A stretch of 64,000 nucleotides of DNA from Hydrolagus colliei. Lineage: Eukaryota. The stretch lies in contig CM068752.1 in assembly GCA_035084275.1 (NCBI GenBank), positions 2,914,001 to 2,978,000 on the forward strand. Direction: 5' to 3'. Position numbers and translations under genes: made by a program. This document shows positions 32,201 through 44,435 of the stretch, one piece after another (position 1 is the first letter of the stretch; each line of letters starts with the position of its first letter). The notes under the pieces were generated by a model. That model did not search any database. It saw only the letters and a list, made by a program, of their open reading frames with translations, and was not told where the DNA came from.

Positions 32201-32674
32201 TAGGGATTGTATTAATACTATCATCAGACTGGACTGTTCATCAGGGCATCATAAGCATTGTGTAAAGTTACTTATCAATGCTAACTGTGACCAGTTACTA
32301 ACCGTGGAAGAGAATTCCGAGGGGAAGCTTAGCTCGGGCAGTCTGTTCCCAGCATTAACTTTGGCCATGACTCTGTTCAAAACAAACCCAACCACATTTT
32401 ATGCGTGTGTGAAGATCAGCAGAGGTTTTATTATGGCTCAAATAGAAAAGACTAACAGGAGAGACAGAAGGAGACATCTTGGGAATATGAGGAGCACCTC
32501 TGGAGTCAGCGCTGGTTTGGGTGAATGAGTGAGTGAGTCAGTGAATCAGACGGAAATTCTCCTAGTGGCTGCTTTAATGAAAGCCCTCCAGTTGAGTAAA
32601 GGTGATCACTGACCACAGTCCGAATCGGAGATTCGCTCCACGCTTTTTCCTGTTCCTTGCCTTCGGTGCTTGAA

Positions 32675-32793
32675 TCACATGGACTGTGTGGTAAAGTTGT
32701 CTCCTCGGTTTCTTATGTACAAGACATCTAGGTACTCTTCATCCATGGGGTCTTCCAACACATAAGGCATTTCTCCTCCTTCCTCTTCAAATT
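32675..32793 (-). CDS. TRIM probable terminal exon
   Basis: ccttttcttgtcgattcag|EFEEEGGEMPYVLEDPMDEEYLDVLYIRNRGDNFTTQSM-stop; phase 1; minus-strand AATAAA at 32427-32432. Confidence 0.55.
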
Positions 32794-35700
32794 CTGAATC
32801 GACAAGAAAAGGTTTGAGTAACTCCAAAGAAACTCTTCGACTCTTCACTTTGATCTTAAAATGACCGAAGGCACAAGGTACATTTACTGATGTCGAACGC
32901 TTTTTAAAGAGAAACACAGAAACAAAACAACTGAAGAGGCCATTGAGCCCATCGTGTCTATGCGCTGGAACTTGATTTTCTAGGTCACACCATTGTTTGA
33001 GCTCACTGTCCAATTCGTATCGCTTTCGATGAATCTGTGTGTGTGTATATGGGGGATATGGGGGATATGTATTGAGGGATATGGGGAGAAAGTGGGAAAT
33101 TGGAATTGAAAATATTAGTAAAGGCACAGATCAGCCATGATCTAATTAAATGGCAGAGCAGCAGCAACAACAACAACAAAATTACATTTATAGAGCGCCT
33201 TTCACATCAGGAGGATGTCTCAAGGTTTACGGGGAAGACTCGAAGGGCTGAACGACTCACTCTTGTTCCTATGTTCCTATTGTGTTCTGTAGAACTGTAT
33301 CCCACAGTCCCTCTGCCTCCCCCCCTCCCCCCACTCCCATGCCTCCTTCAAGACACACCTCAAGACCCTCGTCTTCGACCGTGCCTTTGGTCACCCTCCT
33401 ACGCCTCCCTTCCCCTGCCCTCCAACCCTGCTGATCCCAACCACTAGCGCGGGTGCAGATCCCTAACTGTCCAGCTCCTTGGGACATCCTCTTGACGTGA
33501 AAAGCACAGTATAAATGTAATTTTTTGTGGCTATTAATCGACCAATTCACTATAAACACCCAAAGATGCCAGTAGAAAAGGCCTTTTCTGGGGATTACGC
33601 ATTTTTACCACAATACCTGCATAGTAAACAGGGGTATCCAGAGTGGAGATGCTGGATGTGCTGTCTTCACACCTCCTGTGGAAGTAATCAAAACCTGGTT
33701 ACTATTAAGCCTGTAAATGACAGTCACATTACACAAGCCTCAATATCTTGAACAGCATTGAACTGACTCGCAAACTTGCAACTTGAGGCAACACATTTGG
33801 AGTGTAGCTCCAGTGGTTAGAGCACTCGCCTCACGAGCGAAATACACTGGGTTCGATTCCCTGTGGGGCGATATCTTGGGAAAATTTCCTGACTCCACAT
33901 GCCTGATAATAATAATCTCTCAAGAAAAAAAAACAATAACGGAATTGATCAATTCAAATCCGCGACTGTTTGTGGGACATGGCTGTACGCAATTGGCTGC
34001 TTGCTACATTTCGCCCACAAATATACAGACTCAAATAGACAGAAAAAGTGCTATATCAAATGCAACGATTATTATTATATTATTATTATTAGTTGCTTCC
34101 CAAAGCACACAGTTACCACACTTTACTGAGCATCAAAGTGAATTGTTACTGTGAACTACAGTAACATCACGCTCACTATTTATTGCTGCTTTTACAAAGC
34201 CTCTCGGCCCAGATATGCACTAATTGTCAGGGCAGTTTCAACAGGTTGGTTTTCAGTTTTACTTACAAGTTTTCGGTCAAATTGTCCTCATCATCCTCAT
34301 CTTCCAGTGGAAATCTCTGGAGCATCACGTCATCTCTGGACTTAGCTTTCACAAAAAGATGTTTCAAAAAGTTCATGTAAAACCTCTTAAAATGGTCATC
34401 AGGCTAAAGCGCACAAGAGCTCTAATCCTTTTTTTTCCCAAAAGCTTAAACATCACATTAAAAAAACGCAGAGATTTGAAACGGTCTGACGTTTGCAATT
34501 TGAGTCAATACATTTGGAGTCCTGTAGCTCCAGTGGTTAGAGCACTCGCCTCGCAAGCAAGAGACCTGGGTTTGAATCCCAGCAGGGCGAAACCTTGTGT
34601 AAAAAATTTCCTTACTCCACACACCTGCTAACAATCAATCCCTCAAGAAAAAAAAACAACAATGAAATTGATCACTTCAATCCGCGACTGTTTGTGGGAA
34701 AACTGCTGTGCGCAATTGGCCTGCTGCCTTTCTCCCACAAATATACGGACACAAATAGCTGATATTTAAGAGCGCGAGAGAGCACAGAGCGACAAGTGGG
34801 TCATGTCACAACCTTCAAGCTCTGCCCGATTTCACTGACCAGCCCATAAATATCAGACAATCCCCGCTTTAAAGTATATCATGTGTAGTCCTTTGAGACA
34901 TCGCAACGACGTGATAAGGCACTACTTTATTATCAGATGCAAGGATTGCTATTATTAATTAGCCTACATCTCCCAGGGAAAGTATTATATACAGTAGTTC
35001 CCCTAAAGGCAACAACACCAACAACAACAACAATCTTTTACATTTGTATAGCGCCTTTCACGTCGGGAGGACGTCAAACAAAAACGCCACAGTGTAAATC
35101 TCTCCCCACATTGCCATGATTGATCCACAGACTCCTCTCTATCTCTTATGGTTTTTACATACACTCTCTCTCCCTTTCCCTAACGCTGCCTCTCTTTCTT
35201 CCTCTCTCTGCCCAGTGTCAGACGATTTTGAGTTTGATTCCTGTCTGGCCCCGTGCACGATTTGAAGCAGATACTCTCATCCAATCCTTTTGCTGAAGGA
35301 GTCAGCCCCAACTCGATGTTTATAAGTCTAACTCTGGCATCTGGCCGTAAATATTATTCTCACGGAGACGTTTAGCCTCAAGATCCTCTCTCTCATCTTC
35401 AAACCCCTTCATGCCCTCGCACCTCCCAATCATCCTGACTTGCTTACGCCCATTCCACTATCTGCTGCCTCCGCTCAGCTGGCTCAGTTTGTCCGTGGCC
35501 CACCCCCACTGCACTTCACCATCAGTGGCCGTGCTTTCAGTCACTCTACCCCCAAAGCTCTGGAAGGCTATCTCCCAATCCCTCTGCCTTGCCCCCTCCA
35601 TCCCCACTTTCGAATCCTGCCTAAAGGACCTTCCTTTCATGGTTGTGCTGTACGTATAGTCACTTCGCCCATTCTCTCACCACCCCCCCGGCTCAGACTC

Positions 35701-38700
35701 CGCCACAGACAAAAAAAACACTACCCAGTGTGAAAAAAAAAAGGGGGTGGGAGGGGGGGGCGGGGGGGGTGACGCTACATAAATGCAAGTTGTTGTTGTC
35801 CAGTGAAATCACAAGACGAGGAAAGCGAATCGGTTGAGAGAAGTCACTTTTAATAAATCTAGAGGAGTTATATTTTAGAGGGGATTAACCTGGAAAAGTG
35901 ACGGCTTTCCCACACAGCGGCCACGTGCTGCTCCTGGGAAGTCTGGCCTCTGCGTCGGCCGCCGCCTGCCACTGGACGCCGCGCACAGCGGCGCAGCCGG
36001 CGGAGACATTGCTCACGTTGACGTCTTCCAAACTCAAGGAAGGCCGACGCTTCGGGTGAGAGGGCCCCCCGCCGGCCGCCGCTGGTTTCCTCTCCCGCGC
36101 CGTCTCCCTCGGGGCCTCGGCCGCCTCCGCCCTCGTCGGGCTCAGTTTGCCGAGGAACTCGGCGGAGTCGGAGGCACTCCGGACGCCCGGCTCCCGGGAG
36201 GAGAGGCTCGCCATCAGCCCGATGTCCTTCCTGATCTGGGACAAGCCTTTGTGCACCGAGGAGTGGACCCCCTGGAGGTTGGCGTCGATCTGGTTGAGGC
36301 CGGTGTGGATGGTGTCCCATATGTTGGACATCCCGATGTGGAGAGCGTCCTGGATCTCGATCAGGCCGTTCTGCAGGGCGTTCAGGTGATCGGCCATTCC
36401 GTTCTGCAGGGAGTCCTGCATGTCCGCGAACATGCCGGACTGCATGTCCGTCAGGTCGGACTGCACATCGCCGCGCATGTTGGCCATGTGCCCCCCGTGC
36501 ACGGTGGTCTGCATGTCTCCCATGGCCGCCTGCAGGTCGGCGCTCTCTGCGTTTTTGCCCTCCTGCAACCTCAGGAAGAAGGTCTGGAAATTCAGGTCGA
36601 AGACCTCCTGAGGAGCCACGGACGACATGAGCTGCATCTGGTGAAGTTTGTGCTGCTTCGCGGAGGGTCTGGCCATCACCTCTTCCATCAGTTCCACCAC
36701 CACCGTCTGCTGAGAGGTGCTGAGCTGTGTTGGCGGCTCCTCCGATGACAGTATCCAGGTTGCCGTTTGATCACAAGGACAGTTTATCTTGGTGCTGGAG
36801 TCTGGCCTCTGGACCAACCAGGGTTCTGGCACATCTGTACAGATAAAAAGAAACAACTATGAAGCTATCAACTCAGCCAGCCGGGGCTCCGTCTTAACGT
36901 AGATGCCATCGGTTGGTTAGGGGAGAGAGAGTGTGGGTGGGATGGGTGGGGAGAACCAAGAATGGAAGCGTAGCTGCTTAGAGTACCAGGAGGAATAAAA
37001 CAAGGCTGAATGATTCAATGCTGCTGCGTTGAGGCACCGGTGATGCAGGCAGCCAATGTTTTGCAAGGAGACTTGTGAAGGCAGACAGTGGAGGTATGAC
37101 TAGATTCACTTTGAAACCGTGGAGGAAATCAGTCCGGTTGAGTGGAGGGCAGCGACATAATCACTGGAGTTTCTTGTTGTTCACTAAGTCGAGATGAAGA
37201 GACTGGGGGTCACTGCGTTGCCATATTGTAGGTGATGAGACAGAAGTTTGAAGTCTCGACTGGCTTTTCTTTGGTGGCGTTAAAGATCCAATGAGAAAAG
37301 AAACGTCTCTGCAGTTGTCCAGATAAATTGTCATTCATTTCACGGCTGTATGTAGGATATTGTAGCAAGTACATGGACGGATGGATGCCTCCATTCGCCT
37401 ACCGAAAACAGTCACTGCACTTGGCAGCAATTACCTCTGAAGTGTTTAAGTGACATTTGGACCTTACAGGCACGATATCAAATGCAAGTAGCAGGGGTGG
37501 TGGTGGGGGGGGAAAGTGGCACAAAAAAGTATTGTATGTACACACGATCTCTCGTGTGGTTTCAAAACTGTGATTAGTTTGAGAAAATGGTACTGCGTAT
37601 TACTTTCAAAAGATTTCTGGTGTGAGAGAGACCAGCGTGCGATAGATACATACCAGAAAGTCCGGTTCTGAGCTGATGTTCTTTTGTCAGTTGCTTAGAC
37701 CAGGTTTTGTGGCTTCCTTGTTGTAAAATGCGGCATTTTTTTTATATCCCGTTTTCCCTTCTGTTTTTCCTTTGCGTCTGTACTAGCTTCATAGTGGAAT
37801 ATTTGCTGGCGTCTGCGGCCCAGAACCCAGTGTCTGTGCCAAGTAGCGCTTAATGGCCCGTTACCCGAGATGTCAAATTGGCTGCCGCTTTCGCCCCGGG
37901 ACACGCGCACAAAGTCACTCCACCTTGCACTGTGTCCCGTCCTGCGAAGCTCTTTGAGACGTCCTCCCGGCGTGAAGGGCGCGGGGTCGAATGATAAGGA
38001 TTATACCCTCAGAGGTGATGAATTGACCAAGTGTCAGAGCCAAGTGGTTCAGTTTGAGAATCAGTTTTCATCTCCTGTGGAGTTCGGAGTGCCTTTGCGA
38101 CCTGAAGTGTGCTGCACAAGTCTAACTTGCTGTCAGCGTTGAGCTTCTTCAGGCATTTTCCATCCTTTCTTACCATGGGGACCTCACACTACAATCTTTG
38201 CGATGAGGCCATCCACATTAGAAAAGCCAGGTGTCTGCTTGGCGGGCTTTATAATAATATTGAATGATAATAATACTGTAATAAAAATAATCCTTGCATT
38301 TGATGTAGCGCCTTATCACGTCTTGGAGATGTCTCAAAGGGCTTCAGAGAATGTACTGTAAAGTGCAGTGACTGGATATTCTATCACTGGGTTATTAGTC
38401 TGTCGGTAGCAGAAGGGGAGAGCTGAAGAGAGGGACAGATAGGAGCCTCTACGATCCCCAGCCAGTCTTCACACTGCCTGGGTAGAGATCTTTCCCTGAC
38501 GCACTTCAATTCCAAACAGTCCCCCCAAAATCCCCGTTTAGGCCTCGCAATTCAAACATAATGAGCACCAAAACCAACAAGCTGTGGTTCACAATATCTT
38601 GCAGAACAATCTATAATTGTTAAAGTATGCAGAGCTCAAAGATATATAAACTCTATATATTTTTTAAATGAACTGTAGGAATAATTCAAGTATGTGTAAA

Positions 38701-41700
38701 TACCTTTGCAAAATACAGAAGAATATGGATTCCTTATTATGTCTCCATTTCCTATGGATCTCCTGTGGTGAGTAATCAGAAGTGCAGTTAATAATCGAGG
38801 TGTAGAGACATATGCTGACATTCTAATAGTTGCAGATGGTAACATTTTAAATCTACATTATAAATCTACACGATAATTGGCCAAATTACATTTTTAGAAA
38901 ACTGCGGTTTTCGTACGTGAATATAGGTGTGTGTGCATTTCTGTGTGCAGAACAGTAAAAGCCCGCTGATCCGTGACCCGATCAACCATAACTTCCGTAT
39001 AACCGGCACTTCAAAAAAGGTCCGCATTCGATTAACCGGAATGTATCTGGAAAAATGCTTTTTTTGGGGGTGTTTTTCAGCCGAATGTCCAGCCCACACT
39101 TTAATTGGCCAGGTCTCGAGGGTGCCGGATAAATGGCTTTTATGTATGCAGACCAGTATGCGTGCGGCTCTGTGCAGTATGGGTGTTTGTGCACGTGTGT
39201 GTGTGCATGCTTGTGTTTGTGTGTGTGTGCCTATGTGTCTGTGCATTTCCAGGCGTGTGTGCAGTACATATGTACAGTCCTATCCATCTGGCCTCCTTAA
39301 GTCTCGCCTCGGCAACTCCTAATCCCCCCATTCCCTCCGCGCCCCTCCATCCTCAGCTCGGGTCCGAAGCAGTTACTGTCCAGTGACTTGGGACATCCTC
39401 CTGATGTGAAAGGCGCTATACAAGTGTAATTTTGTTGTTGTTGTTGTTGTTGCGTGTGTGTCTATGGATGTGCCTATGTTTCCATGTACTACTAAGTGTG
39501 CAGACCAATGAGTGTGTGTGTGTGTGCACACACGCATGTTGAACATCATGTACACAGCTATTTTGGATCAATATGTGCCTGTCTACCTTCGCCTGACTTA
39601 GAATATTAGATTCCGAAATTGCTGAGTTCTCTACACACAGACACGGTGGAATCACAGAGCTTCTCTCCCTGATGTACTTACATTGTATCAGATACATTTT
39701 CCTCTTCGGTCTCTTCTTCCATTCCAAACCTTTCCTCCACTCCTTCATTATTCGACTGAACTTTAAAAAACAGGATAGAGTGACTTTAAGCAGGAGTCTG
39801 CCTCAACATTCTGTATGAAGTTTAAAATAACAGGGCAATTATACTTTCAGTGTTACTTGATCACATTTCATTTTACTGCAGTGAGATAGTTAGTGTTCCT
39901 GAAAGCCAGGACTTTAATTGCTGTGCATTTTAAAGTGCAAAGTATACCACTGAAACAATGATCGTCCAATTTTTCTTGGGGGGTAATAATCCCGTCAACG
40001 AAAATATAATTTGGCCACTCAATCCACCACCTTCTCATTTATCTCTCGTTCCTTTTCTCAGCAAACCAAGCACGCACAGGAGGTATTTTCCAAGTACAGT
40101 ATATGTTACCATTCCTCATTAAAAATGATTTCCAGTTACTCTGCTTTGTCTGCAAGGCTTATGTTTGCTCTGGGCCTTATTGTAACATACTGCACATCCA
40201 TGCAGAATGTTCTACTTTACTTCTGCCTTGAATGAGTCAATCTATTGACAATAACTTTGGGTTATTCAAGTATAAAACATTATTTATTGATGAATGCCCG
40301 GGGTATAAGGTCAGTCAACGCCTATAGCACCTGCCAAGTTCCAACCTCACAACTGGAATTTCTATCCAATAGTCTGCCATAATCCAATTTACAACTCTAT
40401 CTTGGAATCCAAACATTTTCACTTTGATGCCGTTAAAAAAAAATACACAGTCAATTCACTCAACGGTATAGAGTGAATTGGAAATCATGATAAGGCGTGA
40501 CATCAAAATGCAAGCGTTGCATTATTAGTATGGATTTTCTGATAGCTTTCATCCAAGATGTTTCTCAACATCAGCACATACTGTAGCTGTAATTTACACC
40601 ACTGTACTCCAACTCTTATCTGCTATTATCGCTTTTCCTAGATACCAAGTGTGTTAACTTGGCAACTTTGATCTCAGGTAATATGATTTGGATTTGGGCA
40701 GCACTTTGAGACATCTGGAAGATGTGTGAAGGCGCTATAATCAAAGGCAAGAATTGTTCATTACCAGTCGTAATCAAAGCTGCGTCACATACCAGGGTGG
40801 TCAAAAATCAGCGTGTTTAGTGTTTCAAAGATTCGCTTTGTTTCCTGTTTGATGTTGGATATCGTTGTTTCGTCCAACTTCTTCCAGGACACTTTTAGTT
40901 TTTCTACCTCGGTGTTGTTGTTGGAAATCCTGAAAAAGTGGTCACAGAGAGAAAAAATATCCAATCAAAATTTAAACCTGGTTATTCTTGTTACACCTTG
41001 TTAACCATATCAGGTGAAAGCTTTGACTTCAATCTGTACATTTGCCGCCGAGAATGGCAGTCTAACGACTTTTACAAACATTTAATGTTTGGCTTATTTA
41101 CACACACATACACATACACACGCACGCGCGAAAAACAGGTCAATAATCTTGATGTGGGTTACCTTTCATAAGTGGATTTGAAGTCCTAAAATGAGAACAG
41201 AATGACATTTTCAATGTGGCTAGGACCCATGTAATAAATATATTTAGCTTTCGTGTCGCATGTTATAATGCACGTCTTTTACGGTCGCATGTAAAAATGC
41301 ATTTGTTTTTCACATGAACAACAACAAATTACACGTGTACAGTACCTTTCACGTCAGGAGGAAGTCCCAAGGCACTGTACGGTCAGGGATCTGCAGTGCT
41401 GGTGGCTGGGATCAGGAAGGATCAAGGGTGGGGAGGACAGGAGTAGGAGGATGACCAAAGGCATGGTGGAAGAGGAAGGTCTTAAGTCAGCTTTTGAAGG
41501 AGCCAAGGGAGGGGGCGAGGCGGAGGGACTGCGGGGCAGAGAATGGGGGCAGAGAGTCTGAAGGCCCGTCTGCCAATGGTACAGCACATCAGAATATAAC
41601 AACAACTAAATTATATTTGCATAGGACTTCACGTTGGGCGGATGTCCCAAAGCACTGGACAATCAATGTTTCAGAACTGAGCTGGGGTCAGGGTGGGTGG

Positions 41701-44435
41701 AGGGTGGGTAGGGTAGTGGGGTGACCAAAACATGGATGAAGAGGAGGGTCTTGAGACGGGTCTAAAAGGAAGCAAGGGAGGGGGCAAGGTAGAGGAGGGA
41801 CTGTAGGCTGGAGTTCCAGAGGGCGGGGGCAGTGAGGCTGAAAACCTGCCCACAAATACTGGGAGCGGGCGAGGCAGGGGGAATAAACCAGGCCGGAGCC
41901 CACTGAGCAGAGGTAGTGAGCAGGTTGATACAGGGTTTGTAGGTTCTAGGGGCAGGGTGGATCAAGGCCACGAAGAGCTCTGAAGGTGATTCCAAGATCT
42001 TGAAGTGTATCCTCTGAGCAATGGCAAGTCAGTGAAGCCAATTTTTTTCAAAAATCCTCATGTCTGGATGAGAATTATATCATATTGATTATTAATTAGA
42101 TTGAATATTATAAATTAGATGCTAATTAATTCATTGGACGAGCATTCACAGTGGTTACAGGTTAACTTGTTATCACCTAATCGCAGTGGCCTTTCGAGTT
42201 TGCTTTACCTTAATAAAGAACAGCGGATCTTTCTGATTTCTCAAATCCTGCACCTCCTGAATGAGGTGTGTGATTACTTCCCGTTTGATCTCCAGTTCCT
42301 GTATCTTCTTCAACACCTTCGAAAGGTTCAGGTTCTTCTCTGAAATCACCATGTCCAGGATTTGTTTCTCTTGTTTCGTCAGCAACATCCTAATTTCCTG
42401 AAACAGATCTGAAATCTGCTTCCTCAAGGTCGCGCTGTCTTTCTGCAACGAGAGAGAAAAACTAGTCTAGAACGTTTCTCCCACACGTAATTCAAAATGC
42501 ACGCACATACACAAAATAGTCCAGCACCAAATGATCATTATAGGAACTATGGCATTTGCAGATTTTGGGGATATCTGTTGATATGATATTGTGGAGTCCT
42601 GTTTTAGAACACTCACCTTACAAGCGTGAGACCTGTGTTCGAATCTAGGCAGGTCAGGGTGAAACCTTGTGCAAGTTTCCTTACCCCCCACACACACACA
42701 CACACGCCTAATAATAATCCCTCCATAAAAAGAACAATAATAAAAAATTGGTCATTTCAATCCACGACTGTTTGTGCGACACTGCTGTGTGCAATTGGCT
42801 GCCGCGTTTCGCCCACAAATATACAGTCAATTCACTTTACACAGTATATTCTGTGAAGCGCTTTGAGACGTCTAGAAGAAGTGGAAAGCGCTATATCAAA
42901 CGCAAGGATTATTATTATATTACAGGGAACTATGCCTAACCAAACCCAACACAAAAAAGGTCATATATTGTTCCCCTAACATTTACTACCATGACTTTAA
43001 CAGGATGTGGAGGCCGGTAGCTCAGCGGGTGGGTCACTTGCCTCACAAGCGAGAGACCCTGGGTTTGTTTCCTGGCGGGGCAAAACATTGGGCAAGTTTC
43101 CTTACTCCACCATTCCAGGTGTTTCAGCTAGACTAGATGTGACAGCCGTGTCAGGGTTTCAAAAAAAAACACGTGAGCATACTCAATTAATACAGAAGCT
43201 GTTCATTAAATTACCTTTAAGTTCATTTCAGTTCCTTGCAGTTCTTTCGTTGCTTCTTCCAAAGACGCCCTGGAGCTCTGCAGTTTATCCAGCTTCTCAG
43301 AAAGGCTGGCCTGTCGAAATCAGTCCAAATTATGGGTTACCCCTCACTCCACCTGGGACACCGCTGCTGATCGCAATCGGCCGCCTCGTTTCACCCACAA
43401 GACACACAGTCGACCCACTTTACAACATATCCTGTGAAAGTGCTTTGCAAAGTCTCATCGACATGATCAGGCGACAACAGCAACAAAAGTACATTTTGTA
43501 TAGCGCCTTTCATGTCAGGAGGACGTCCCAAGGCGCTGGACAGTTACTGCAGGCACAACGTCAAACGCAAGGATTGTTATTAGTGTTAATATTATTATTA
43601 TTTTATTCGTTTTATTTATTATTATTATTTTTCCAGAGGCTTCAGCAGCGCACTAAAACGAAACTGATGTGAACTCGCTTGCAAATACGCGCACTCGATC
43701 ACACCCTTTCGCAGTGTATGGCTTGAGGCGCTTCGAGACGCCTTGACGACTGGCTTAAGCAAGGCTCTGCATCAAACACGAGGATTATCATTACCATCGT
43801 CCTCAACGCCGTGATGATTGACGTTTTACAATTCAGTGCAGTTCGGGTTTGTTCCCCCTTACCTTGGTCTCGTTGTGTATATCCTTCAGAATGCGTATGT
43901 CGTGGTTCTTGTGAGGCCCGGCCACGTAGCAGGTCACGCAGATGCAGGAGTGATCGTCCAAGCAGTAGTACTCGATGAGCTTCTCGTGATCCGAGCACTT
44001 GCGGTCTTCCAGCGAGCTGGCCGGTTCGATCAGTACGTGGTTCTTCTGGGCGGCTTTCTCGGTGTGTTTCCTGAAGTGATGCTCGCACAGCGAGGCTTCG
44101 CAGTTCATGCACGTTTTCACCGCCGGGAAAGGATCATCCAAGCAGAAATCACACAGGATCTTGACTGGCTCCTCGTTCATTTGTGTGGCTTCAAACCGTT
44201 CGATGATGTTGCAGAGCTTGAGGTTCTTCTGCAGGACGGGCTTTTGGTTGTACTCGGCACGGCACTCCGGACACGAGTAGACTTGGACCGTGTCGCGTTT
44301 GTCCCAGTTCTTCTCGATACACTTGCGGCAGAAGTTGTGGCCGCAGGTCAGCGAGACCGGCTCCGTGTAGATGTTCCAACAAATTGAACAGTTTAACTCT
44401 TCTTTCAAATTACCAACAGCTGAAGTTGAAGCCAT
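32675..44435 (-). CDS. TRIM family E3 ligase (RING-Bbox1-Bbox2-coiled coil, TRIM25/finTRIM-like N-terminus) with an atypical non-B30.2 C-terminus; gene span, 11-exon model, about 800 aa
   Basis: Exons of 573, 96, 234, 23, 137, 79, 59, 945, 79, 59 and 119 nt splice in one open frame (2403 nt). The 96/234/23-nt exons are the classic TRIM coiled-coil pattern. The 3' exons rest on splice/phase logic only. Confidence 0.7.
33617..33675 (-). CDS. TRIM exon 10 (59 nt; module copy 2)
   Basis: tgattacttccacag|RCEDSTSSISTLDTPVYYA|gtattg; same length, phase and acceptor context as exon 7. Confidence 0.6.
34267..34345 (-). CDS. TRIM exon 9 (79 nt, acidic; module copy 2)
   Basis: ctttttgtgaaag|AKSRDDVMLQRFPLEDEDDEDNLTEN|gtaagt; same length and phase as exon 6 and alignable with it. 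Confidence 0.62.
35890..36834 (-). CDS. TRIM exon 8 (945 nt GC-rich cassette encoding 11-mer repeats); could alternatively read through to a stop at 35885
   Basis: Strong acceptor ttctttttatctgtacag; 315-codon open frame with strongly G/C-ending codons; donor CCAG|gttaat; phase 1 to 1. Confidence 0.72.
38704..38762 (-). CDS. TRIM exon 7 (59 nt; module copy 1)
   Basis: tgattactcaccacag|RSIGNGDIIRNPYSSVFCK|gtattt; phase 2 to 1. Confidence 0.62.
38953..39144. mobile_element. Possible pogo/Tigger-like MITE remnant
   Basis: Imperfect terminal inverted repeats cagtaaaagcccgctgatccg ... ccggataaatggcttttatg, followed by TA. Confidence 0.4.
39682..39760 (-). CDS. TRIM exon 6 (79 nt, acidic; module copy 1)
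   Basis: ttttttaaag|VQSNNEGVEERFGMEEETEEENVSDT|gtaagt; phase 1 to 2. Confidence 0.68.
40793..40929 (-). CDS. TRIM exon 5 (137 nt, linker)
   Basis: ttttcag|ISNNNTEVEKLKVSWKKLDETTISNIKQETKRIFETLNTLIFDHP|gtatgt; phase 2 to 1. Confidence 0.78.
41163..41185 (-). CDS. TRIM exon 4 (23 nt micro-exon)
   Basis: cattttag|DFKSTYER|gtaac; a 23-nt exon at this position is typical of TRIM genes. Confidence 0.8.
42209..42442 (-). CDS. TRIM exon 3 (234 nt, coiled coil)
   Basis: tgcag|KDSATLRKQISDLFQEIRMLL...KDPLFFIK|gtaaa. Confidence 0.9.
42592..42920 (+). mobile_element. DeuSINE copy in a TRIM intron
   Basis: Same head/core/tail consensus. Confidence 0.8.
43215..43310 (-). CDS. TRIM exon 2 (96 nt, coiled coil)
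   Basis: gacag|ASLSEKLDKLQSSRASLEEATKELQGTEMNLK|gtaat. Confidence 0.88.
43863..44435 (-). CDS. TRIM coding exon 1: RING + B-box1 + B-box2
   Basis: LKEELNCSICWNIYTEPVSLTCGHNFCRKCI...YSCPECR; CDFCLDDPFPAVKTCMNCEASLCEHH; CSDHEKLIEYYCLDDHSCICVTC..H..H; donor AAG|gtaag. An acceptor (cctcag) just upstream of the ATG implies a non-coding first exon. Confidence 0.93.

Follow-up and report, generated by a model that had tools for sequence, protein, structure and literature searches.

A TRIM gene of Hydrolagus colliei with no detectable PRY-SPRY domain and a hendecad module shared with other cartilaginous-fish proteins

The C-terminal domains of TRIM proteins determine how the ligase acts, and the known swaps add globular binding domains. 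What, then, is carried by a TRIM gene in which the RBCC N-terminus (RING, B-boxes, coiled coil) is not followed by a detectable PRY-SPRY domain? We have addressed this question for such a gene of the chimaera Hydrolagus colliei (contig CM068752.1, 2,914,001-2,978,000; this 64-kb stretch is called the window, and positions below refer to it). A first-pass annotation of this DNA proposed that the recognition domain had been replaced by a single new module. We find instead that the C-terminal half is a patchwork and not one domain: it is composed of two duplicated acidic exon pairs, an acidic tyrosine-bearing tail and a module within exon 8 that ends in a hendecad helix. This unnamed hendecad exon, detected only in cartilaginous fishes, is common to the TRIM gene, to a five-pass Ig protein and probably to a soluble TNFR-like protein, that is, to two protein types unrelated to TRIM.

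The gene and the composition of its C-terminal half

The gene has 11 coding exons on the minus strand (44435-32675), which are listed here together with the features discussed below (lengths in nucleotides, nt, and amino acids, aa; identities are to the orthologue of the elephant shark, Callorhinchus milii).

44435-43863, minus strand: exon 1, 573 nt; RING (aa 16-58), B-box 1 and B-box 2 (Pfam E 1e-11 to 1e-6)
43310-43215, minus strand: exon 2, 96 nt; coiled coil; 32/32 identical
42442-42209, minus strand: exon 3, 234 nt; coiled coil (TRIM_CC weak, E 0.004); 77/78 identical
41185-41163, minus strand: exon 4, 23 nt; AG/GT, phase 0-2; 8/8 identical
40929-40793, minus strand: exon 5, 137 nt; linker helix after the coiled coil; 44/45 identical
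39760-39682, minus strand: exon 6, 79 nt, phase 1-2; acidic, first half of duplicated pair A
38762-38704, minus strand: exon 7, 59 nt, phase 2-1; second half of duplicated pair A
36834-35890, minus strand: exon 8, 945 nt, phase 1-1, GC 0.63; linker, shared module, low-complexity tail
36613-36203, minus strand: shared module in exon 8, aa 475-611, about 137 aa; homologous to Ig five-transmembrane protein tails
36445-36203, minus strand: hendecad run in the module, aa 531-611; L/I at a, G at d, L/M at e, I at h
34345-34267, minus strand: exon 9, 79 nt, phase 1-2; acidic, first half of pair B; 23/27 identical
33675-33617, minus strand: exon 10, 59 nt, phase 2-1; second half of pair B; 19/19 identical
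32793-32675, minus strand: exon 11, coding part, 119 nt; acidic Tyr tail with (E/D)EYLDVL and stop codon; 37/39 identical

The introns flanking exons 1-10 have GT..AG ends and compatible phases, the acceptor at 32793 is AG, and the spliced frame is open over 800 aa with a sole, terminal stop. The protein is colinear over all 11 exons with the C. milii RefSeq protein XP_007904455.1, which is also 800 aa long and identical at 699/800 positions (exons 1-5 agree at 98-100% and the small 3' exons at 85-100%, while exon 8 falls to 72%); a later RefSeq version of that model has 50 additional N-terminal residues and an unchanged C-terminus. Splicing is deduced from the H. colliei sequence and from RefSeq models. 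Sequencing run X1 (32300-39100 only) covers introns and exons equally, at a depth of about 40 and with no splice joints, and is for that reason treated as DNA. Other acceptors for the last exon (33031, 32899, 33141) yield short ends that match no orthologue. We regard the gene and its model as confirmed at the level of sequence comparison. The first-pass annotation had described RBCC exons of 96, 234 and 23 nt followed by six exons, giving about 800 aa. These exons and the open frame stand, with the correction that seven exons follow the 23-nt exon and six follow exon 5, and its junctions 40793>39760, 38704>36834 and 35890>34345 equal exon boundaries of the model, with support from the C. milii RefSeq protein.

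The same annotation had reported no B30.2 motifs between 41 kb and the PDE6A 3' end, and a profile search agrees. With a B30.2 profile built from 23 relatives, the highest score was -3.9 bits in the six-frame translation of the window and -2.5 bits in the 30 kb of flank searched; four control paralogues from the H. colliei genome scored 114-169 bits. No B30.2 was detected in the orthologue proteins, and past the coiled coil Pfam recognised no family, with nothing significant in exon 8 or in the last exon. As there is no C-terminal PRY-SPRY the gene does not belong to TRIM class C-IV, that of TRIM25, TRIM47 and the finTRIMs; its RBCC without a catalogued C-terminal domain places it in class C-V, which is a mixed group (PMC3137616).

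The acidic exon pairs 6+7 and 9+10 have equal lengths (79+59) and phases (1-2-1) and, aligned without gaps, are identical at 72/138 nt, whereas shuffles gave a mean of 36 and a maximum of 54 (n=5000). Because lengths and phases match and the identity lies beyond the shuffle maximum, we suggest an old tandem duplication of the pair; the duplicated pairs are also found in sharks. In the tail, (E/D)EYLDVL is present in 9/10 tail-bearing orthologue proteins, and this conservation suggests a linear motif of some kind. A LIR-like reading of EEYLDV is not significant alone and was set aside, with 18% of shuffled tails matching as well.

The last 81 residues of the module form the hendecad run, with a hydrophobic period of 3.63-3.65, near the 11/3 of a hendecad, a self-similarity peak at lag 11 and a patterned core in which Gly occupies 38/44 d positions over 11 modules. 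AlphaFold2 (AF2), run on 7 sequences, predicts a single long helix (pLDDT 82-96 in the repeat). The hydrophobic moment is strong (1.09 at 98 degrees vs 0.46 at 103 degrees) and the net charge of the module is -3 to -6. A three-copy complex prediction, run without an alignment, scored 0.10 and is taken as evidence neither for nor against a bundle. Foldseek on the helix gave 0 PDB matches, the viral library none at E<=0.001, and the ESM Atlas no usable match (one lead at 0.77). Hendecad coiled coils such as Pfam Baculo_PEP_C and the CCDC90-like family have the 11-residue hydrophobic period in common with the module, but matches to the Pfam hendecad families fall under every cut-off (Baculo_PEP_C is weak, E 0.008) and the likeness is one of periodicity only; the Gly-at-d signature and the flanks are common only to the chondrichthyan copies described below. 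Exon 8 has a GC of 0.63 vs 0.34-0.53 in the other exons, and its 3' third is sharply divergent from C. milii.

A module shared with Ig and TNFR-like proteins

A profile search with the module over 1.84 billion representatives gave 123 matches at E<=0.001; among the first seven, four come from elasmobranchs (Rhincodon, Narcine, Mustelus and Pristiophorus). The full-length elasmobranch matches consist of an Ig domain, five predicted transmembrane (TM) segments, a Ser/Thr-rich stretch and then the module. They belong to an uncharacterised chondrichthyan family with one or more Ig domains and five predicted TM segments (P0145-P0148, P0265, P0266; hereafter Ig-5TM), the layout of which we take to resemble that of CD47. 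A profile built from TRIM copies only, and thereby avoiding circularity, was scored on 137 sequences and gave the Ig-5TM tails 91-100 bits over nearly its full length, and the TNFR tails 40-44 bits, with the best unrelated hendecad at 36. The modules of TRIM and Ig-5TM proteins are 31-43% identical; the match to the Ig-5TM tails has E~1e-22, and the pairwise E is 3e-28. These scores argue firmly for homology between the TRIM module and the Ig-5TM tails. For the TNFR-like last exon homology is likely, the TRIM-TNFR alignment scoring 125 vs a maximum of 86 in register-keeping shuffles (n=2000). Matches to paralemmin-3, phage-fibre-like and NACHT-ankyrin proteins reflect multi-repeat periodicity and were discarded, none of them ranking in the top 18 of the TRIM-only profile; in salamander paralemmin-3 (P0144, P0150) the long 11-mer repeat insertion looks like an independent hendecad expansion.

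Besides the TRIM copy on C19, the sole module copy found in the H. colliei genome belongs to a TNFR-like gene on C34 (G000:C34:8005511-8008497; L002, L030), where it makes up the last exon, of phase 1. This gene is the third in a tandem cluster that lies next to a cyclin-L-like gene. In this gene cysteine-rich exons lead into the module exon, and the three joined exons contain no TM segment; the product is possibly a secreted, self-bundling decoy receptor. The same exon order is seen in a 349-aa Logan contig protein (P0152), 34% identical to it over 304 aa. Relatives of the Ig-5TM proteins were found in H. colliei at G000:C38:4538000-4552000 and 4504786-4505067, within a cluster of RING/B-box TRIM genes. 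The count of two module copies is a lower bound, and with this count an origin from a high-copy transposon is unlikely. In both genes for which DNA was examined (TRIM and TNFR-like) the module lies in a phase-1 exon, and we infer that exon 8 acquired it by exon shuffling before the chimaera-shark split. That split dates to about 400 million years ago. The module (aa 475-611) is a defined and testable domain, and would document that exons were shuffled between scaffolds of immune type early in jawed-vertebrate history, as well as a possible splice switch for ligase clustering.

Predicted ligase action and alternative explanations

At the N-terminus the RING (Pfam zf-C3HC4_4, E 1.4e-11), two B-boxes (aa 94-134 and aa 144-181) and a weak TRIM coiled coil follow one another in the order that defines TRIM/RBCC proteins, and the best PDB match of exon 1 is TRIM25 (4cfg, E 9.5e-33). 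A full-length single-sequence AF2 model places long helices past the B-boxes at low confidence (overall pLDDT 37.6, unusable). The RING-region residues E12, E13, H33, the Arg59 linchpin, N76 and E79 are constant in 6/6 orthologues checked and match positions named as contacts to ubiquitin or the E2 (PMC13769585). We therefore predict that the protein is an active ubiquitin ligase, for which the TRIM RING would need dimerisation, as catalysis does in the TRIMs treated in the same paper.

The reading towards which we lean, with modest confidence, is that the hendecad module cross-links RBCC dimers and so clusters RINGs, with the acidic tail as a docking site. In this model an ancestor with PRY-SPRY would have lost it, the acidic exon pair would have been duplicated and the module shuffled in before the chimaera-shark split. 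The RBCC would form the usual antiparallel dimer, hendecad helices would bundle as trimers or tetramers and link such dimers, the linked dimers would bring together RINGs as TRIM catalysis requires, and the acidic Tyr tail would offer short linear docking sites for a substrate or adaptors. TRIM coiled coils are antiparallel dimers, and higher-order assembly aids RING dimerisation in TRIM5 and TRIM19 (PMC8251876). Hendecads require a small core side chain or a higher oligomer (PMC9858780), and Gly at core position d together with a period of 3.63-3.65 fits this rule and supports bundling. The partners that precede the module, namely a cytosolic ligase, a stretch of five TM segments and the ectodomain of a TNFR with no TM segment, suit a role that does not depend on compartment, most simply bundling. 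The function proposed is deduced, and its reach beyond chondrichthyan biology would be modest.

Several observations weigh against this reading. Chimaera and shark modules are 49-54% identical, vs 92% for the RBCC, and short shark isoforms are without the module. The exon 8>9 join is based on two holocephalan gene models and one shark gene prediction (P0142). The TNFR homology stands just 4-8 bits over generic hendecads on the TRIM-only profile. Finally, an amphipathic helix with an 11-residue repeat could instead attach to the surface of lipids, and the TNFR copies have weak Apolipoprotein matches in Pfam. Taken further, this last point would make the helix one of the perilipin, apolipoprotein or synuclein type, targeting the ligase to lipid droplets or membranes. 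The 11-residue period, the strong moment, the single unpaired AF2 helix and the weak Apolipoprotein and Phasin matches of the TNFR copies are in line with this, but the unpaired helix weighs little, since a single-chain prediction cannot display a bundle, and with lipid-helix family profiles no TRIM protein matched, while the TNFR copies reached 20-24 bits for Apolipoprotein vs a cut-off of 90. Perilipin-type helices tend to be basic and rich in small residues, whereas the module is net negative and has a narrow a/e/h stripe of large aliphatics with a near-fixed Gly at d, as in a coiled-coil core. We consider lipid binding unlikely. It is quite unlikely, too, that the module serves like-with-like docking, in which an Ig-5TM tail would co-assemble with the TRIM module and recruit the ligase to the membrane. 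The resemblance of the two modules would allow it, and the Ig-5TM tail is predicted to be cytosolic, on the same side as TRIM, because five TM segments follow the extracellular Ig domain. However, the C38 Ig-5TM relatives are without the module in the 40 kb examined, and C19 and C34 were the only places where the genome search detected it; the C38 result also counts against a general role of the Ig-5TM link. Chimaeras nonetheless retain the TRIM module at 86% identity. We also give little credence to a wider scheme of a Gly-cored hendecad module private to chondrichthyans in a TRIM ligase, a CD47-like five-pass Ig protein and a secreted TNFR decoy, in which the membrane protein would recruit the ligase in a death-fold-like manner, through co-assembly of their modules, under the control of a splice switch.

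The isoforms bear on a further alternative. In the RefSeq long forms of sharks and rays, annotated in 4 species and 695-705 aa in length, the protein terminates behind the module; the short forms (about 548 aa) arise by an early exit from exon 8 to the acidic tail, one model skipping exon 8. Shark models thus carry helix and tail as alternative ends, which also speaks against a single recognition module, whereas both chimaera gene models join the two in one protein. In sharks splicing would toggle between a bundling and a tail isoform, and chimaeras would have fused both. The functional protein could then be the short RBCC with acidic Tyr tail, and the module a minor alternative exon. Most shark and ray cluster representatives (443-549 aa) are indeed without the module, and the tail is better conserved than the module (40-42/59, two sharks and rays). 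In the window a stop lies just beyond the exon-8 donor, with ATTAAA about 30 bases on, a weak signal, as hexamers of this kind are found in the other checked introns as well. Yet since chimaeras and sharks diverged the module has kept its open frame and its register, 4 species have annotated long isoforms, and no phase-1 internal donor was found in exon 8 of the window. We hold this alternative to be very unlikely, and continue to prefer the clustering of RBCC dimers by the module.

Relatives, names and genomic surroundings

A query with aa 310-800 returned 9 proteins, all chondrichthyan (word-seeded search, 7986 candidates scored), and exon 8 alone had a single match among longer proteins, C. 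milii XP_007904455.1 (7988 candidates scored). The orthologue clusters name 12 shark and ray species. The RBCC of C. milii and Chiloscyllium is identical at 324/354 positions (92%), on which ground the gene is, as far as sequence conservation tells, slow-evolving and unlike the fast-evolving antiviral TRIMs; RBCC-B30.2 TRIMs evolve fast (PMC3137616). After the orthologues, the best 120 of 194 RBCC matches include proteins from sturgeon, coelacanth and lungfish that lack B30.2 (47-53%), as well as a large number of PRY-SPRY TRIMs from amphibians and coelacanth (about 40%). In trees, both of them quick searches with no bootstrap and no TRIM8 sequence included, a further point against our reading, the orthologue clade (support 99-100) is nested in a group (95-98) containing a H. 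colliei PRY-SPRY paralogue, and sturgeon and paddlefish TRIMs are sister to the orthologues with an SH-aLRT of only 82. The latter (P0034-P0036) are the best bony-fish RBCC match among the matches listed (47-48%) and likewise without B30.2, but their tails are long tandem repeats unrelated to the chimaera tail, one being named AHNAK-like, and they are at most candidate orthologues. The XNF7-like 'TRIM25-like' RBCC-PRY-SPRY expansions of amphibians and coelacanth fall in the same 95-98 clade; TRIM25 itself does not. The gene is like TRIM25 in its RING-BB1-BB2-CC order, Arg linchpin and best PDB match, and unlike TRIM25 and these expansions in being a single, slow-evolving gene (one such gene was found in the genome) with a module and acidic tail instead of PRY-SPRY.

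The closest H. colliei paralogue is an intronless RBCC-PRY-SPRY gene (G000:C26:6725449, L004) whose open frame spans 576 aa; it shows 56% identity over exon 1 and is alignable with exon 5 as far as its PRY start; it is possibly a retrocopy of the ancestral form. Since most relatives in the same supported clade bear PRY-SPRY, the domain was probably lost from an ancestor that had it; of the replacement first proposed, the loss is thus retained and the substitution by one module is not. TRIMs that lost or swapped B30.2 are already known (PMC3137616, PMC2657112, PMC3503706). Zebrafish ftr genes with a chromodomain or cyclophilin, and TRIMCyp, likewise replaced B30.2 by a foreign domain (PMC3137616), but those gains are known globular binding domains, whereas the gain here is a helical repeat that has no name, is old and has become fixed throughout a class. 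A 'trim105' lead was dropped (0 mentions in PMC3137616). No publication describing the gene (LOC103186970 in C. milii) or the module was found in a search that did not cover supplementary gene lists. The architecture, presented at first as undescribed and lineage-specific, is therefore apparently undescribed and its tail restricted to cartilaginous fishes, but it is chondrichthyan-wide and already in RefSeq under automatic, conflicting names ('TRIM8-like', 'TRIM25-like', 'MID2', 'uncharacterized'), with no domain annotated beyond the coiled coil. Our analysis corrects the first three on more than a dozen RefSeq entries.

The gene is flanked by a sulfate permease gene, PDE6A and what we take, from its motifs, to be a PGC-1-type gene. 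The corresponding human block at 5q32 is presumably SLC26A2-PDE6A-PPARGC1B in this order and TRIM-free. An SLC26-PDE6A-PGC-1-like block presumably has a paralogous region near human TRIM8, and this could be taken, as the RefSeq names imply, to make the gene TRIM8 or its genome-duplication sister. To our knowledge, no hendecad module is known in TRIM8, a class C-V protein, although the layout is alike (RBCC, two B-boxes, no PRY-SPRY) and N76/E79 correspond to TRIM8 N73/E76. The linchpin is Arg59 in 6/6 orthologues vs a conserved Asn (N56) in TRIM8, whose C-terminus is unstructured where a hendecad module stands here (PMC13769585). Furthermore, no plainly named mammal or teleost TRIM8 is among the best 120 RBCC matches, and the closest paralogue carries PRY-SPRY. 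A search for TRIM8 in the H. colliei genome yielded no sequence for the trees. With an Arg and not an Asn linchpin, and with C-terminal matches only in chondrichthyans, we conclude that the gene is not TRIM8, a relationship that we consider extremely improbable.

TRIM-like genes are otherwise abundant in H. colliei: C36, C38 and many small contigs carry clusters of more than 100 RING-bearing TRIM-like first exons, a large lineage expansion (153 matches, from 150/310 candidates scored). One further first exon of this type, at G000:C27:10834988 (L019), has very long low-complexity repeats between the RING and the B-boxes.

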